In this document: one piece after another, positions 9,452-36,611 of the stretch | How the letters are laid out: each line of letters opens with the position of its first letter | How positions within the stretch are numbered: the first letter of the stretch is position 1 | Origin: an uncultured Rikenellaceae bacterium | Lineage (GTDB): Bacteria > Bacteroidota > Bacteroidia > Bacteroidales > VadinHA17 | Direction: 5' to 3' | Length of the DNA: 64,000 bases | NCBI GenBank assembly: GCA_964535035.1 | Contig: CAZHRV010000118.1 | Location: 943-64,942 of the forward strand | Position numbers and translations under genes: made by a program | The notes under the pieces: generated by a model | Database searches by the model: none | Told to the model about the DNA's origin: nothing | What the model saw: the letters and a program-made list of their open reading frames with translations, nothing else

Positions 9452-9482
9452 TTGTAGACAAGAGGTTTGAATTATCTAACCT
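9452..9482. repeat. Left copy of a 31-bp direct repeat TTGTAGACAAGAGGTTTGAATTATCTAACCT
   Basis: It is identical at 29 of 31 positions to 33278-33308 in the same orientation. It starts 1 nt after the TGA stop of the preceding gene. Confidence 0.85.
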
Positions 9483-31764: not shown

Positions 31765-33183
31765 ATGAAAAACTTATCTTTATTTGCTTTGATATTCGTA
31801 TCATTGGCATTGGCCTCATGCAGTGATTCGAATCCTATATTGAAAATTGAAGGCGGCCAGATAATTGGTGTGCAGACCCCGACGGAGGGGATTATTGCAT
31901 ATAAGGGTATTCCTTTTGCAGCCCCTCCCGTAGGCGACCTGCGTTGGAAAGAACCGCAGCCCGTAGTGCCCTGGGAAGGCATAAAGGTGGCAGACACTTA
32001 CGGCGATGCTGCCTCGCAAACAACATGGGATCCCGAGAGTTTTTACGGCAGGGAATGGCGCGCCAGCGGCAGTGTTCCGTTCACCGAGGACTGCCTCTAC
32101 CTGAATATCTGGACTCCCGCAGCAGGCAAAACGGGCAAGAAAATCCCCGTTGCCATGTGGATACATGGCGGCGGCTATCGTGAAGGCTTTGCCTATGAAC
32201 CGGAAATGGACGGCGGTGAGGATTGGTCCTCACGCGGTGTAATTTTGGTTCAGGTAACTTACCGTCTCGGCTCTATGGGATTCTTCTCACACCCGCTTTT
32301 ATCGGCTGAAAGCCCCCACGGTGTCTCAGGTAATTATGGCCTGTTTGACCAGGTTGCAGCGCTTAACTGGATTCGTAATAATATCGAACAGTTCGGCGGT
32401 GACCCCAACAACATAACCATCTTCGGTCAGAGCGCCGGCGCCGGCAGCGTCCAGTCATTATGTGCTTCCCCACTGTCCGGGAACCTGATCAGCCATGCAA
32501 TAAGCATGAGCGGCGGCGGACTGAGCGACTTGAGACCAGGTATCCCGCTCGATACTGCCCAACTGGCTAACAAGAAGATGATGGACTATTTTGAGAAGAC
32601 TACATTGGAAGAAATGCGCGCTCTTTCGTTCGAGGAACTTAAGCAAATGTCAGCTGATTACGCGGCTGCCACCAAAAATCGTGTAATGTGGAGTCCTGTT
32701 ATCGACGGTTATCTTTTAACTGGCACTTTCAGTGATCTGGCCCGCACTGGCGAAATTGCCGATATCCCCTATATATTTGGATTTACTGCCAACGATATGA
32801 ATGATATGACGAAGGCCGTGGGAGATTTCTGTGCCCTGCGTGCAGAAAAGAGCAGCAAGCCTGCTTATGCTTATTTATTCGCACGCCCCCTGCCGGGTGA
32901 CGATAGTGGAGCTTTCCACTCATCGGATCTGTGGTATGTGTTCCATTCATTTTCATACAGTTGGCGACCTTTCACGGAGGGCGACGAGGCGTTGAGCAAT
33001 AAAATTGTCGACTACTGGACTAATTTCGCCAGGTACGGCAATCCGAACGGCAAGGAAGAAGGAATTTGGACACCTTACTCTGCCGGGCTTCCTGAATTTA
33101 TGGTATTCGATGTGGATGGAGACGAGGCAGGCTGCACCATGACTAACACTCCCGAATACAAGGGTAACTCATTCAGAAGGTAA
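31765..33183 (+). CDS. Type-B carboxylesterase (para-nitrobenzyl esterase-like), exported
   Basis: It has EDCLYLNIW, the nucleophile elbow FGQSAGAGS and a lipoprotein-type leader (MKNLSLFALIFVSLALASC). Confidence 0.9.
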   Translation: MKNLSLFALIFVSLALASCSDSNPILKIEGGQIIGVQTPTEGIIAYKGIPFAAPPVGDLRWKEPQPVVPWEGIKVADTYGDAASQTTWDPESFYGREWRASGSVPFTEDCLYLNIWTPAAGKTGKKIPVAMWIHGGGYREGFAYEPEMDGGEDWSSRGVILVQVTYRLGSMGFFSHPLLSAESPHGVSGNYGLFDQVAALNWIRNNIEQFGGDPNNITIFGQSAGAGSVQSLCASPLSGNLISHAISMSGGGLSDLRPGIPLDTAQLANKKMMDYFEKTTLEEMRALSFEELKQMSADYAAATKNRVMWSPVIDGYLLTGTFSDLARTGEIADIPYIFGFTANDMNDMTKAVGDFCALRAEKSSKPAYAYLFARPLPGDDSGAFHSSDLWYVFHSFSYSWRPFTEGDEALSNKIVDYWTNFARYGNPNGKEEGIWTPYSAGLPEFMVFDVDGDEAGCTMTNTPEYKGNSFRR

Positions 33184-33236
33184 AAAGTCTGATTAGGAAC
33201 CACATCTGCTTCCATCTTGCTTCCAATAAACTAGAA

Positions 33237-33263
33237 AACCTGTAAATACTTAACTTACAGGTT
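33237..33263 (+). terminator. Hairpin terminator after the carboxylesterase gene
   Basis: A perfect 9-bp stem pairs AACCTGTAA (33237-33245) with TTACAGGTT (33255-33263). A pyrimidine/T-rich tract CTCTTCTTTCTGCTTTG follows. Confidence 0.55.
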
Positions 33264-33277
33264 CTCTTCTTTCTGCT

Positions 33278-33308
33278 TTGTAGATAAGAGGTTTGAAATA
33301 TCTAACCT
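33278..33308. repeat. Right copy of the 31-bp direct repeat TTGTAGATAAGAGGTTTGAAATATCTAACCT
   Basis: It is 29/31 identical to 9452-9482 in the same orientation and lies just downstream of the terminator hairpin. Confidence 0.85.
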
Positions 33309-33402
33309 TCTCAACGGTATTTACGAGATAATTAGACTATCAGATATTCTAGCTGTTATCATTTATTCAGAGTGAGTTTTTGTATTTAGTTTCATTATTA
33401 CC

Positions 33403-33410
33403 TAAATTTG
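33403..33410 (+). promoter_or_regulatory. Bacteroidota-type -7 box TAAATTTG (with TTTG at 33379-33382 as a -33 element) for the TIR gene
   Basis: It matches the TAnnTTTG consensus and lies 22 nt upstream of the ATG at 33433. The TTTG sits 20 nt further upstream. Confidence 0.5.
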
Positions 33411-33432
33411 ATAATGAACTAATAATTCTCCG

Positions 33433-34752
33433 ATGTCAAGCGTCGTTGAAGGATACAATTACGACATCTTCATCTCTTACTGTCAGAAAGACAACAAGCA
33501 TGACGGCTGGGTATCGGAGTTTGTGGAAAGCCTGAAGGGAGAACTCGAATCCAACTTCAAGGAGGATATCAGTGTCTACTTCGACATCAATCCTCATGAC
33601 GGGCTTCTTGAGACACATGATGTTGATGAATCTCTGAAGGATAAGTTGAAATGTATGGTCTTCATCCCAATAATCTCAAGAACATATTGTGATCCCAAGA
33701 CTTTCGCATGGGAGCATGAGTTCAAGGCGTTTATTGAGCTAGTCTCTAATGACAGATTTGGACTGAAAGTGAAACTTCCTAATGGAAATGTGGCAAGCAG
33801 GGTGTTACCTGTAAGTATTTATGACCTGGACCCTGATGATATCAATTTATGTGCATCAGTGTTGGGAAGTGTTTTGAGGGGAATTGATTTCATTTATGCT
33901 GAGCAGGGAGTGAACAGGCCACTTAAACCTGAAGATGATGATAAATCGAATCTGAATAAAACGAAATACCGGGATCAGGTTAATAAAGTTGCACTTGCAA
34001 TAAAAGATATTATTCGAAGCATTAAGGCACCTAATACTTCTGACAAAGCAATTAACAAAGATACCCAGGCTGATATTGAGGAGCGTCTCGATAAGAATGC
34101 AATAACCCGAAGAAAGTTTGTTAAAGGGGTAGCCGGTGCAACTGTTTGTTGTGCATGTTTTTCATTGGATTGTCTGGCAGCCTCAGAAGAGGAAGAAAAG
34201 GATAGAATCGAAGACTGCAAGGGTAATGAACATCTGGCAGCCGTATGCGGAACATATTGCGGAGCCTGCCCGGCTTATATCGCTAAACACAGCGAAGATG
34301 AGCAAATAAAGATGAGACTGCAAAAGAGACTTTCATCCGGGCCGGTGAAGGCACTGAAGACGATTCCGGATCCGAGCTGGATGGATGGCATTCTTTGCGA
34401 CGGCTGTCTCAGCAGTGGCCAGATTCCCTTCCATTGCCAAAGCTGCGCTATGAAGGTATGCGCAGCGAACAAACAGAATGTGACTCGTTGCTCTGACTGT
34501 AAAGAGTTACCCTGCTATCGTATTACGAATATGATTAATACCGGATTGCTGCACCGTGCCGAATACCTGCCAAACCTTGAAAAAATTCGTGAGATGGGCG
34601 TTCAGGAATGGGTTAAATACGAAGAAGAGCGCTGGCGTTGTCCCCAGTGCGGTCTGCCTATGAGCTGGTATGACACCGAATGTGCCGGATGTGGGGAGCC
34701 AAGATCTGAGCAACTGTTTCCATTGACTAAAAATAAAATCCAATCCTTCTAA
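33433..34752 (+). CDS. TIR-domain protein fused through an internal Tat-signal-like hydrophobic segment to a DUF3795-like Cys-rich domain
   Basis: YDIFISYCQKDN, CMVFIPIISRTY and FAWEHEF are TIR-like. ITRRKFVKGVAGATVCCACFSLDCLAA lies mid-protein. The Cys pattern CGTYCGACPAY..CDGC..CQSC..CSDCKELPC..CPQCG..CAGCG is DUF3795-like. Confidence 0.75.
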   Translation: MSSVVEGYNYDIFISYCQKDNKHDGWVSEFVESLKGELESNFKEDISVYFDINPHDGLLETHDVDESLKDKLKCMVFIPIISRTYCDPKTFAWEHEFKAFIELVSNDRFGLKVKLPNGNVASRVLPVSIYDLDPDDINLCASVLGSVLRGIDFIYAEQGVNRPLKPEDDDKSNLNKTKYRDQVNKVALAIKDIIRSIKAPNTSDKAINKDTQADIEERLDKNAITRRKFVKGVAGATVCCACFSLDCLAASEEEEKDRIEDCKGNEHLAAVCGTYCGACPAYIAKHSEDEQIKMRLQKRLSSGPVKALKTIPDPSWMDGILCDGCLSSGQIPFHCQSCAMKVCAANKQNVTRCSDCKELPCYRITNMINTGLLHRAEYLPNLEKIREMGVQEWVKYEEERWRCPQCGLPMSWYDTECAGCGEPRSEQLFPLTKNKIQSF

Positions 34753-34756
34753 AAGG

Positions 34757-34793
34757 TGACAAGTCAAAAGCCTTGCCATGCTACTGAGAAGCT
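34757..34793 (+). repeat. Copy 1 of a ~37-bp direct repeat (TGACAAGTCAAAAGCCTTGCCATGCTACTGAGAAGCTT)
   Basis: By eye about 31/37 positions match copy 2 at 34921-34957. It starts 5 nt after the TIR-gene stop. Confidence 0.75.
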
Positions 34794-34920
34794 TATCTTT
34801 TATACAAATCAGCTCCCCTCTTTGCTTCAGCAGGGAGGGGATGGGGGGTGAGTACATGTGACACCGAGGATTACACCTCTCCACCAAACGGCGGATCGGC
34901 TTGATCCTCTTTTGGTAGCC

Positions 34921-34957
34921 TGACAAGTCAAAAGCTTTGCCACGCTACGCGTGGCTT
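34921..34957 (+). repeat. Copy 2 of the ~37-bp direct repeat; contains a perfect hairpin GCCACGC-TAC-GCGTGGC
   Basis: The sequence is TGACAAGTCAAAAGCTTTGCCACGCTACGCGTGGCTT. The stem pairs 34939-34945 with 34949-34955. Confidence 0.75.
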
Positions 34958-35033
34958 GGGACTTAATTTTTCCATCCCTTATAAAAGCAAGCTTTTAACG
35001 GGCTGAAAAAAATTAAGCCCTGTCGCTTTCGCG

Positions 35034-35050
35034 ACAAGGCTTTTGACTTG

Positions 35051-35051
<1 letters not shown>
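35034..35051 (-). repeat. Inverted partial copy (ACAAGTCAAAAGCCTTGT on the minus strand) abutting the tRNA 3' end
   Basis: The reverse complement of 35034-35051 matches the 17-18 nt core of the two direct copies. It overlaps the tRNA discriminator base by 1 nt. Confidence 0.7.
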
Positions 35052-35122
<71 letters not shown>

Positions 35123-35134
35123 ATATAGTGGGTG

Positions 35135-35142
35135 CAAATTTA
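35135..35142 (-). promoter_or_regulatory. -7 box TAAATTTG (minus strand) for the tRNA
   Basis: The plus strand reads CAAATTTA, 12 nt upstream of the mature tRNA 5' end. Confidence 0.5.
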
Positions 35143-35239
35143 ACATATATGGCTTAATTGTCAAAATAATTGTGATTTTATTTATTTTACCATTTGCCGG
35201 TTGCCGGTAATCGGTTACCGGTAATTAAATATTAATTGC

Positions 35240-35247
35240 TATTTTTG
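35240..35247 (+). promoter_or_regulatory. -7 box TATTTTTG upstream of the superoxide reductase gene
   Basis: It matches TAnnTTTG and lies 55 nt upstream of the ATG at 35303. Confidence 0.4.
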
Positions 35248-35302
35248 CCGTGAACTGTGCATCAGATGGAAGTCTATATGATTCATTAATATAGTAATTA
35301 AT

Positions 35303-35686
35303 ATGCCACGGGTATTCAAAGCAACCGAAATAGAAAAGGAAGAGAAAGAGATAAAACGTGATTACCTCGACCGCCATATGCCTCATGTGATTTGTCCTGA
35401 CCAGGTGAAACGGGGCGAAAAATTCTGTGTGAAAGTGAGGCTCGGTGAAGAATATACCCATCCCGATGACCATGATCATTTCATAAGCGTGATACAACTC
35501 TGGAACAGGGAAACTCTGCTTGCCGAAGCTCGTTATACTGCCGGAGTCTATGGCTCCGAACCCTCACATAGTGAAATAGATTTTTATATTGTAGCCCCGG
35601 AGGTTTCGATGAACCTTTCTGCTATGGCAGTGTGTACAAAACATGGTTTGTGGCAAAGCGAAGATAAACCCGTGAAGGTTATATAA
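35303..35686 (+). CDS. Superoxide reductase (neelaredoxin / desulfoferrodoxin Fe-centre II domain family)
   Basis: The ligand pattern is RHMPHV (E/K-H-x-P type), HPDDHDHFI (H-x5-H) and CTKHGLW (C-x-x-H-G-x-W). The protein is 127 aa. Confidence 0.8.
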   Translation: MPRVFKATEIEKEEKEIKRDYLDRHMPHVICPDQVKRGEKFCVKVRLGEEYTHPDDHDHFISVIQLWNRETLLAEARYTAGVYGSEPSHSEIDFYIVAPEVSMNLSAMAVCTKHGLWQSEDKPVKVI

Positions 35687-35717
35687 AAGCCACTTATCGT
35701 GTGCCGGATATTATTAT

Positions 35718-35725
35718 TATCTTTG
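35718..35725 (+). promoter_or_regulatory. -7 box TATCTTTG upstream of the M23 peptidase gene
   Basis: It matches TAnnTTTG and lies 22 nt upstream of the ATG at 35748. Confidence 0.5.
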
Positions 35726-35747
35726 CGTGCCGGGCAAATAATAAAAG

Positions 35748-36611
35748 ATGGCAAAGAACGATAAGAAAAAACGCAACTGGCGCGATAAATACAGATTTTC
35801 CGTTATCAATGACACAACCTTTGAAGAGGTTTGGAGGATAAGGCTTACTAAATATAATGCCTTTCTGATAATTACTTTTCTGGTACTATTCATTATTGGC
35901 GCCACAGCCTCCCTGATAGCTTTTACCAACCTGCGCGAATTCATTCCCGGCTATCCCGATGTTATTATGCGGCGTAACATCCTTTTAAGCGCCATACGGC
36001 TCGACTCACTGGAAAAGGAACTGGCTGTCAGGGATAAGTATTTCGCAAATCTTAATGCTATCATTTCCGGAAATGAGCCTGTTAACCTGTTTTCAATTCA
36101 GGATACTTCAGGCGATTATGAAGCAATTACCTTTGAAAACTCATCCGAGGATTCAGCATTGAGGGCTCAGGTAGAGAAGGAAGAAAGATTTAATCTCACC
36201 TTGCAGCCAACATCACAGGAATCATTTACAAACCTCGCCGGACTCCATTTTTTCCCCCCCGTAAAAGGGATAATATCGGCCAGATTTGATCTGCGAACAA
36301 GACACCTAGGGACCGATATTGTCACCAAACCAAAATCCACAGTATCTTCAGTACTCGACGGCACCGTAATCTTTACCGGATGGACGATGGAGACAGGTTT
36401 TGTAATAGAAATCCAGCATCCCAACAATATCGTTTCAGTGTATAAACATAATGCTAGCCTGCTTAAAGAGACCGGCGATCTGGTTCGTGCCGGAGAAGCA
36501 ATTTCTATAGTCGGCGACTCTGGCGAGTTATATACTTCAGGACCTCATCTCCATTTTGAGATATGGTACAAGGGAACCCCGCTTGATCCTGAAAAACATA
36601 TTATCTTCTAA
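35748..36611 (+). CDS. M23-family peptidoglycan metalloendopeptidase, membrane anchored
   Basis: HLGTDIV...GDSGELYTSGPHLHFEIW carries the H-x-x-x-D and H-x-H zinc motifs. There is an N-terminal TM segment. Confidence 0.85.
   Translation: MAKNDKKKRNWRDKYRFSVINDTTFEEVWRIRLTKYNAFLIITFLVLFIIGATASLIAFTNLREFIPGYPDVIMRRNILLSAIRLDSLEKELAVRDKYFANLNAIISGNEPVNLFSIQDTSGDYEAITFENSSEDSALRAQVEKEERFNLTLQPTSQESFTNLAGLHFFPPVKGIISARFDLRTRHLGTDIVTKPKSTVSSVLDGTVIFTGWTMETGFVIEIQHPNNIVSVYKHNASLLKETGDLVRAGEAISIVGDSGELYTSGPHLHFEIWYKGTPLDPEKHIIF

Follow-up and report, generated by a model that had tools for sequence, protein, structure and literature searches.

A TIR-fold module joined in frame to a Tat-signal-bearing DUF3795 protein in an uncultured Rikenellaceae bacterium: a candidate evolutionary chimera

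Twin-arginine translocation (Tat) signals ordinarily require a free N-terminus, and the one internal signal considered here that is known to function, in Sco2149, does so behind helices inserted by the Sec pathway (PMC5449189). Among Toll/interleukin-1 receptor (TIR) domains, a useful reference is the F33-R34 pair of RUN1, where the R34A mutant impairs NAD+ cleavage (bioRxiv 10.1101/2021.10.02.462850). Here we analysed a gene that combines the two themes. It lies in a 64,000-nucleotide stretch of DNA from an uncultured Rikenellaceae bacterium (GenBank assembly GCA_964535035.1, contig CAZHRV010000118.1, positions 943 to 64,942), which we call the window. The open reading frame (ORF), on the plus strand at 33433..34752 with an ATG start, encodes 439 residues that join a TIR-fold N-terminal half to an internal Tat signal and a cysteine-rich DUF3795 half; either half is present only once in the window, namely in this ORF. 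The literature that we searched described neither this architecture nor the broader family of TIR-headed receptors to which the N half belongs. The architecture is new, the kinds of component are known, and the function is unproven. The reading that we favour, at a probability of about 0.5, is that of an evolutionary chimera, the product being inserted by Tat with the TIR domain as a cytoplasmic passenger and the DUF3795 domain in the periplasm, under selection that acts mainly on the latter.

The N half was assigned from a predicted structure. An AlphaFold2 model of residues 1-206, built from an 83-sequence alignment (predicted local distance difference test score (pLDDT) 84.9, predicted TM score (pTM) 0.84), was compared with the PDB using Foldseek, and its matches were TIR domains almost without exception. 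The top 27 were all TIR domains (E 4e-5 to 4e-3, probability 0.84-1.0), and RPP1, SARM1, BtpA, PdTIR, MyD88, AbTir, RUN1, SPARTA, TIR-STING and ThsB were matched at E 4e-5 to 1e-2, with a probability of ~1 and target-normalised TM scores of 0.55-0.63. The predicted TIR-fold core, which also holds residues invariant in its family, spans residues 1-170 (33433..33942, plus strand). Beyond the canonical core the model adds a beta-hairpin and a long helix (residues 154-198); the C-terminal helix of the module (residues 179-198) and a charged linker (…DTQADIEERLDKN), the latter identical in part to the linkers of P0041, P0061 and P0095 and common to TIR-STAND relatives, occupy 33943..34098 on the same strand. 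As modelled, the N half is a TIR domain at the level of the fold. Sequence profiles did not reach it: no curated TIR profile matched above threshold, Pfam TIR_2 giving E=0.14 (13 bits against a 28-bit cut-off) and NCBIfam FxsC_Nterm E=0.004 (17 bits against 130). Likewise, phmmer searches with either half alone returned no significant match among PDB sequences, and a profile of the family placed the L7/L6 TIR first at a non-significant E=0.4-1. The earlier assignment to TIR, part of a prediction made from the letters of the window alone (hereafter the original prediction), is therefore confirmed at fold level though it lies below sequence thresholds.

Across the 83 sequences of the alignment 17 residues are invariant, including D11, F13, Y16, W93 and E96. 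W93 and E96 belong to the motif FAWEHEF and sit at the start of the third helix (residues 91-105). E96 is the candidate catalytic glutamate, with the spacing W-x-x-E in place of the canonical W-x-x-x-E; the glutamate that had been proposed as catalytic thus proved to be invariant. Directly after the betaA strand, DIFISY, the window protein has C17 where the family has an arginine. R17 is kept in at least 90% of the family and is absent from all five fusions (C, H, P, H and C at this position); the window codon is TGT, one change away from CGT. A weak profile alignment, not significant in itself, places position 17 on the arginine of the L6/L7 SFRG motif, and by way of that alignment the lost residue appears to correspond to the arginine needed for RUN1 NADase activity, which suggests that TIR activity has been lost.

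The relatives of the N half (33433-34050 in the window), loci L048-L050 among them, are numerous and strikingly alike. An exhaustive search of 1.84 billion representative proteins returned 1093 clusters (50% identity) at E≤1e-3, of which 514 were at E≤1e-30. The match always fell at residues 1-200 of the target, with an identity of ~60-80% (61-78% among the 150 matches listed), and single contigs of 8-15 kb hold two to three copies. What follows the module differs widely: a strongly hydrophobic transmembrane (TM) helix with CadC/TolB_N-like and TPR regions, beta-propellers, FGE-sulfatase and hydrolase domains, DUF6272, or STAND NTPases. The usual design is a TIR-like module, one TM helix and periplasmic TPR or propeller domains, or else a fusion to a STAND NTPase. 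By these comparisons the N half is a swappable module. None of the members that we checked matched a Pfam TIR model, their source annotations being TolB-like, TPR or hypothetical, and a literature search for TIR-TM-TPR receptors in Bacteroidota found no paper describing them. A family of more than 1000 clusters with a predicted TIR-fold module, heading receptor-like and STAND proteins in Bacteroidales, thus escapes current TIR annotation. Identity of ~60-80% across so many clusters is unusual for defence TIRs, and this uniformity suggests a conserved partner or chemistry.

The C half was recognised directly by sequence, which bears out the DUF3795 assignment of the original prediction and, with it, the division of the protein into three parts. 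Pfam DUF3795 (PF12675) matched residues 269-365 (34237..34527, plus strand) at E=2.6e-13, with 50.7 bits against a cut-off of 22.6 and coverage of profile positions 2-82 of 83. The invariant cysteines of the domain are arranged as C272-x3-C276-x2-C279, C322-x2-C325, C335-x2-C338 and C353-x2-C356-x4-C361. A conserved C-terminal region follows (34528..34749, plus strand), consisting of a helical segment HRAEYLPNLEKIREMGVQEWVKYEE and a pair of zinc-ribbon-like knuckles, C403-x2-C406 … C417-x2-C420 (34639-34692), with weak and non-significant similarity to rubredoxin and to RanBP2-type zinc fingers. All 14 cysteines of the mature part (C-x3-C-x2-C, four C-x2-C pairs and the terminal knuckles) are invariant in 21 of 21 aligned homologues; this count and that for the twin-arginine motif rest on 21 sequences, 10 of the 30 loci considered below having been left out.

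Relatives of the C half usually stand alone. A scan of one genome per GTDB species recovered 39 loci in at least 8 phyla, whose identity is 51-89% over the best-matching segment, or 51-79% for loci in which the match spans most of the query. They come from Bacteroidales, Rikenellaceae, Prolixibacteraceae, Desulfobacterota, Sedimentisphaerales, Pirellulales, Phycisphaerales, Calditrichota, Acidobacteriota, KSB1 and others. In the 30 loci that were analysed the protein has ~215-240 residues, most carry (S/T)RRxFxK within ~10-30 residues of the start, and a TIR is present in one (L006). The C half therefore reads as a complete copy of a normally autonomous protein that bears its own Tat signal, and the original prediction, which suggested that a once separate Tat-exported gene had left the internal Tat-like stretch behind, is borne out, since stand-alone homologues carry it N-terminally. 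Because it combines a Tat signal with this cysteine pattern, the C half is probably a periplasmic cofactor-binding protein, holding either an iron-sulphur (Fe-S) cluster or Zn, and its restriction to anaerobic lineages fits such a role. No neighbour family was common to more than 4 of the 30 loci, and hence no conserved partner gene was found among them; an SDR dehydrogenase was considered as a partner and set aside as lineage-specific synteny, three of its four loci being from Desulfobacterota. In the literature DUF3795 returned one incidental and irrelevant mention. The fusion draws attention to this little-characterised exported 14-cysteine protein, which anaerobic phyla have in common. Separately, P0019 and L010 carry the linker, Tat signal and DUF3795 chassis with a duplicated C-terminal extension of ~170 residues.

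Between the two halves lies the internal twin-arginine signal (residues 223-252; 34099..34188, plus strand), identified by a profile match, by homology to stand-alone N-terminal signals and by hydropathy. NCBIfam TAT_signal_seq (TIGR01409) matched residues 224-244 at 17.4 bits, just above its cut-off of 16.7. The n-region reads ITRRKFVKG, with R226 and R227 in T-R-R-K-F-V-K at residues 225-231, and is followed by the h-region GVAGATVCCACFSLDCLAA. The signal begins at residue 224 of 439 and not at the N-terminus; in stand-alone homologues it lies ~10 residues from the N-terminus, and the same twin-arginine motif is N-terminal in most of the 30 stand-alone GTDB homologues examined. RR-x-F is kept in at least 90% of the 21 alignable homologues. 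Residues 232-250 are the sole hydrophobic segment of the protein, and the best 19-residue hydropathy windows all fall inside residues 229-251. The segment has a mean Kyte-Doolittle (KD) value of 1.68, contains one Asp and is flanked by charges of +4/-5; TM helices of paralogues reach KD 3.24. A possible signal-peptidase site, LAA|S, follows the h-region. A lipoprotein signal was ruled out on reading the sequence, there being no lipobox before any cysteine of the h-region. Internal initiation of the DUF3795 part was likewise ruled out, as the linker contains no in-frame ATG, GTG or TTG; with no in-frame start between the TIR and the twin-arginine motif, the organism can make DUF3795 only as the fusion.

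Whether a signal in this position would be used is the point at which a wholly cytoplasmic protein has to be weighed. According to this alternative the buried signal goes unrecognised, and DUF3795 either serves the TIR as a metal or redox partner inside the cell or is mislocalised in a non-functional protein. The general need of Tat signals for a free N-terminus (PMC5449189) speaks for it, as does the folded domain contained in the 223-residue extension ahead of the signal. Evidence on the other side comes from the signal itself. RR-x-F-x-K and the h-region of the fusions remain close to the stand-alone forms, with a nonsynonymous to synonymous rate ratio (dN/dS) over the signal segment of 0.2-0.33 between the window and P0002-P0004 and of 0.5-0.8 within the P0002-P0004 clade, and working internal Tat signals are known (PMC5449189). 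We regard a purely cytoplasmic location as quite improbable. Many DUF3795 (PF12675) proteins elsewhere lack a signal peptide, which was counted in favour of the cytoplasmic location. To our knowledge, Tat-dependent biogenesis through an internal signal behind a soluble domain has not been described for a natural protein.

An assembly artefact was ruled out as the source of the fusion, since an independent metagenome contig (L047) is 100% identical over the domain junctions; four further clusters share the TIR-Tat-DUF3795 architecture. Full-length relatives form only five clusters at 90% identity (P0001-P0005; 16 sequences, 71-99% identical). One of these relatives was found on a 352-kb contig of a Bacteroidales metagenome-assembled genome at the same general locus with extra genes inserted, where the fusion gene (protein 73% identical) stands between GH43/esterase genes and the genes for tRNA-Met, desulfoferrodoxin, M23 peptidase and DXR. 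The gene is also internally heterogeneous. Synonymous divergence (dS) between the window and P0002-P0004 is ~1.8 over residues 1-170 and 0.2-0.5 from residue 171 on; therefore the TIR core, with its promoter, differs in history from the remainder, and the breakpoint lies near codon 170. No recent gene conversion from P0022, the closest paralogue sampled, could be shown, its TIR being only 80% identical at the DNA level. The N half has a GC content of 40.4% and the C half one of 48.0%, compared with 42.5% for the window. This shift within one ORF fits separate origins of the two halves and, taken with the high cross-phylum identity of the C half, suggests that the latter has spread horizontally. 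A second breakpoint, near codon 415, emerged from the comparison of 32291-34747 with the otherwise identical L047 (a contig of JGI 3300031274), which is 100% identical to ~34674 and then divergent: its last ~25 codons differ, its stop comes 7 codons earlier, and a ParB_N gene (Pfam E=9e-20) follows where the window has repeats and a tRNA. This difference is a strain-level rearrangement or a mobile-element junction in the 3' end of the gene.

The two halves also differ in constraint. In the P0002-P0004 clade dS is uniform, and the TIR has a dN/dS of 0.44-0.75 against 0.26-0.33 for DUF3795. The fusion TIRs were also scored at the 93 positions where 78 non-fusion members show at least 90% conservation; they depart from the consensus at 5 (window), 9, 12, 12 and 26 of these, compared with a family median of 2 and a maximum of 10. 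These comparisons show the fusion to be a mosaic with relaxed constraint on its TIR, and they indicate that recombination made it. One might go further and regard the gene as decaying or non-functional, formed recently by recombination at a hot spot near a tRNA and with neither half under selection. Several breakpoints in and beside the gene, the repeats and strain-level rearrangement directly 3' of it and the rarity of the architecture all point that way. Against this stand an intact frame of 439 codons, a conserved promoter, a dN/dS of 0.19-0.33 for DUF3795 in all comparisons, the retention of all 14 invariant cysteines, and the occurrence of the gene at this locus in a second genome, where the encoded protein is only 73% identical, and we consider a gene without function very improbable.

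What happened to the TIR in the nearest relatives bears on the same issue. Many proteins of ~250 residues are 72-80% identical to the C half and begin with a relic of the betaA region, followed by the linker and Tat signal (for example P0013, MSGVIEGYEKDIFISYCQEDNEH). These short forms keep ~24 residues from the start (MxxIxGYxxDIFISYxxxDN), after which the sequence passes directly to the linker; their deletion end points vary. Another form is 5'-truncated at about residues 163-175, within the C-terminal extension of the TIR, and has unrelated DNA upstream. In P0009, from an ENA contig, an unrelated N-terminal domain, from a family of ~300 small stand-alone Bacteroidales proteins, takes the place of the TIR. 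P0007 was withdrawn as a TIR-less form, as its gene starts 103 nt from the contig end. In a neighbour-joining tree of the C half, drawn without support values, the fusions, the relic and truncated forms and P0009 are interleaved in one clade apart from the canonical forms. The simplest reading would be one fusion event followed by at least 5 independent losses or replacements of the N-terminal domain, with DUF3795 kept each time. Each loss of the TIR returns the Tat signal towards the N-terminus, which argues that export is the selected state and counts further against a cytoplasmic location.

The favoured chimera would have arisen and would operate as follows. The promoter, the TIR-like module and the charged linker would come from the large Bacteroidales paralogue family, the donor probably being a gene of TIR-STAND type, because the linker DTQADIEERLGK is common to TIR-STAND proteins. 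These parts would have been fused, in frame, to an entire gene encoding a Tat-exported, cysteine-rich DUF3795 protein together with its signal peptide. The TIR domain, unable to cross the membrane, would stay in the cytoplasm while the internal twin-arginine signal enters the Tat translocase in hairpin form and the DUF3795 domain, already folded and carrying its cofactor, is moved to the periplasm, where the weak h-region tethers it or cleavage after LAA frees it. Selection would act mainly on the DUF3795 part, with its probable Fe-S or Zn site, and the TIR would be a largely tolerated passenger, swapped by recombination, held under relaxed constraint and deleted repeatedly in sister lineages.

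Several observations weigh against this account. The fusions have diverged to 71% identity and so have persisted for long. The dN/dS of the TIR remains below 1, which leaves some constraint in place, and the TIR of the window protein differs at just 5 of the 93 conserved positions and keeps all 17 family-invariant residues, W93 and E96 among them; being near-intact, it may still be active. The order TIR, TM helix, periplasmic domain is the norm of the family, by analogy with which the fusion could be a legitimate new receptor. The tree behind the count of losses carries no support values, and a full-length AlphaFold2 model (36-sequence alignment) reached a pLDDT of 37 and was unusable, so that the structural evidence covers the TIR half only.

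The strongest competitor takes these observations at face value and makes the protein a functional transmembrane TIR signalling protein, in which the periplasmic DUF3795 domain serves as a metal or redox sensor and the Tat h-region as the anchor; this is a refinement of what the original prediction proposed. A change of cluster state or of oligomerisation outside would drive self-association of the TIR inside, with cleavage of NAD+ or synthesis of a signal for a stress response or abortive infection as the output. The TIR fold with invariant W93 and E96, the retention of all family-invariant residues, and flanking charges of +4/-5 that favour an N-in, C-out orientation count for it. The paralogues follow a similar logic, with a TIR, one TM helix and a periplasmic CadC/TolB_N-like, TPR, propeller or FGE-sulfatase part; the C-terminal chassis occurs with either of two unlike N-terminal modules; the setting is variable and tRNA-adjacent, with a ParB gene directly 3' in a near-identical strain; and a superoxide reductase gene lies nearby here, as catalase-peroxidase genes do at short-form loci. 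There are several objections. In many phyla the would-be sensor is ordinarily exported as a protein in its own right; the TIR has been lost at least 5 times with DUF3795 retained; R17, the putative equivalent of RUN1 R34, is missing from every fusion; the h-region is weak (KD 1.68 against 3.24), has an Asp inside it and a likely cleavage site after it; and the N-terminal domain that P0009 has instead comes from small stand-alone proteins and not from a known effector family. No match to a PADLOC system and no partner genes were found either. We consider signalling across the membrane possible but doubtful.

The same evidence bears on defence, which the original prediction had proposed as the role of the gene. 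Protein models for Thoeris, CBASS-TIR, SPARTA, TIR-STING and Avs/STAND-TIR gave no match in PADLOC and partner genes of these systems were absent, the ORF being surrounded by genes for a carboxylesterase, a GH43-type protein, tRNA-Met, desulfoferrodoxin, an M23 peptidase and DXR. PADLOC returned only a non-significant match to bSEFIR over 27 residues (E=6.5e-4) and nothing specific for the relatives. A single-gene defence system or redox-triggered NADase is thus unsupported, and it is further weakened by relatives that drop the TIR and keep DUF3795, by the greater deviation of the fusion TIRs and by the loss of a near-invariant arginine. Nor does DUF3795 look like a sensor specific to this gene, the cysteine-rich half being normally stand-alone and exported, in many phyla, with no conserved neighbours. 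On balance the findings favour a chimera under erosion over a new immune mechanism.

The fusion gene is a self-contained transcription unit, as follows from a 5' hairpin, its own promoter, a 3' hairpin with a T tract and a separate tRNA terminator, and the predicted monocistronic organisation could be located feature by feature. Its immediate 5' neighbour is a carboxylesterase gene (Pfam COesterase), with a GH43-type gene also upstream. A hairpin at 33233..33267 (no strand assigned), an inverted repeat with a terminator-like site ~50 nt past the carboxylesterase stop, is probably the terminator of that gene and divides the two transcription units. Right behind it, at 33276, DNA homology to the orthologous loci begins, and a conserved 28-nt intergenic element, GTAGAYAAGAGGTTTGAAWTATCTAACC (33280..33307, plus strand), forms the 5' edge of the shared DNA. 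A second copy lies at 9454-9481 of the window, with 0 chance matches expected, and the element is also kept beside the orthologous genes in L001, L045, L046 and L047; it could be a regulatory site or a member of a small repeat family. The Bacteroidetes promoter consensus served to call a putative promoter at 33379..33410 (plus strand), 23 nt 5' of the ATG, with a -33 element TTTG (33379-33382), a 20-nt spacer and a -7 element TAAATTTG (33403-33410); the TAAATTTG motif and an upstream TTG are kept in the P0003 and P0004 loci.

On the 3' side, right after the ORF stop, two 28-nt direct repeats (34757-34784 and 34921-34948, plus strand), 164 nt apart, flank 136 nt in which a weak hairpin and T tract lie (34893-34907, plus strand). 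A third copy, 17 nt long and inverted (35035-35051, minus strand), starts at the last base of the tRNA-Met gene, within the tRNA terminator; for this repeat, ACAAGTCAAAAGCCTTG, 3 matches were found against 0.05 expected by chance. The 17-28-nt repeats were considered as att sites of a tRNA-integrated element, which was not supported, the gene-side copies being inverted relative to the tRNA copy. The tRNA-Met(CAT) gene itself (35051..35122, minus strand) was found by ARAGORN and matched the Rfam tRNA model at 66.8 bits, and it has its own terminator hairpin at 35015-35042. It probably encodes an initiator tRNA, because three G:C pairs (GGG/CCC) adjoin the anticodon loop and a U1·U72 mismatch occupies position 1:72. 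An Rfam scan of 32500-36000 found nothing besides the tRNA. The tRNA and the strain differences 3' of the gene agree with the variable, tRNA-proximal setting that had been described for it. Further 3' are genes for desulfoferrodoxin, an M23 peptidase and 1-deoxy-D-xylulose 5-phosphate (DXP) reductoisomerase (DXR), the last two named from the annotation of the syntenic contig, and an unannotated ORF of 444 residues. The desulfoferrodoxin gene (superoxide reductase-like) is at 35303-35686, and TIR-less relatives (L002-L005) have a catalase-peroxidase gene (PF00141) 1-3 genes away on the opposite strand; this proximity may be coincidence or may point to some connection with oxidative stress. A G-rich motif, GGGAGGGGATGGGGGG, was seen in the spacer 3' of the gene (34830-34850), and a similar G-run lies upstream of the 5'-truncated homologue in L052/L053.

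What the locus means depends on which account holds. Should the prediction hold, the fusion would offer a case in nature of a Tat signal acting behind a folded cytoplasmic domain and would broaden the rules of Tat targeting. If the TIR is merely a decaying passenger, the gene would exemplify how capture of a promoter and 5' module makes, and then dismantles, chimeric genes, and would say nothing new about immunity. The most far-reaching possibility is a working "inside-out Toll-like receptor", with a cytoplasmic TIR output and a periplasmic Fe-S or Zn sensor exported in folded form by an internal Tat signal; it would belong to a very large and so far unrecognised group of TIR-headed receptors in Bacteroidota. 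This we think unlikely.

Set beside the systems already described, the protein resembles each in part. In fold it is like SARM1, RUN1/RPP1/L6/L7, BtpA, PdTIR, AbTir, ThsB and the SPARTA TIR-APAZ proteins: betaA of L6/L7, D-V-F-L-S-F, aligns with D-I-F-I-S-Y of the window, an invariant Trp and a Glu stand at the start of the next-but-one helix, and the domain is N-terminal in a multidomain protein. It is unlike them in falling below all curated thresholds, in its W-x-x-E spacing, in the Cys in place of Arg after betaA, in the extra beta-hairpin-plus-helix extension of ~60 residues, in having no defence partner genes and, compared with defence TIRs, in showing ~60-80% identity to the more than 1000 clusters of its family. 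With the stand-alone Tat-exported DUF3795 proteins (~220 residues) of anaerobic Bacteroidales, Desulfobacterota, Planctomycetota, Calditrichota and Acidobacteriota it shares 51-79% identity along the whole of residues 223-439, the twin-arginine signal, the 14 invariant cysteines and the zinc-ribbon tail; their signal lies at about residue 10, whereas that of the window protein lies at residue 224 behind a folded TIR. Proteins of the Sco2149 type (the Streptomyces Rieske protein and related families, integrated by Sec and Tat) have, like the window protein, an internal twin-arginine motif before the last hydrophobic segment and, after the signal, an outside-bound cysteine-rich domain that probably holds a cofactor (PMC5449189). 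The signal of Sco2149 follows Sec-inserted TM helices, whereas that of the window protein follows a soluble domain with no other hydrophobic segment, and its use of Tat is a prediction. Finally, the layout of ToxR/CadC-like receptors, a cytoplasmic output domain, one TM helix and a periplasmic TolB_N-like or TPR part, is shared by the paralogues of the N-terminal module, whose periplasmic parts match the CadC and HilA/EilA models weakly, and is mimicked by the fusion. The output of ToxR/CadC-like receptors is a winged-helix DNA-binding domain, whereas that of the paralogues and of the window protein is TIR-like, and the window protein has a Tat signal and DUF3795 where that layout has a TM helix and sensor.

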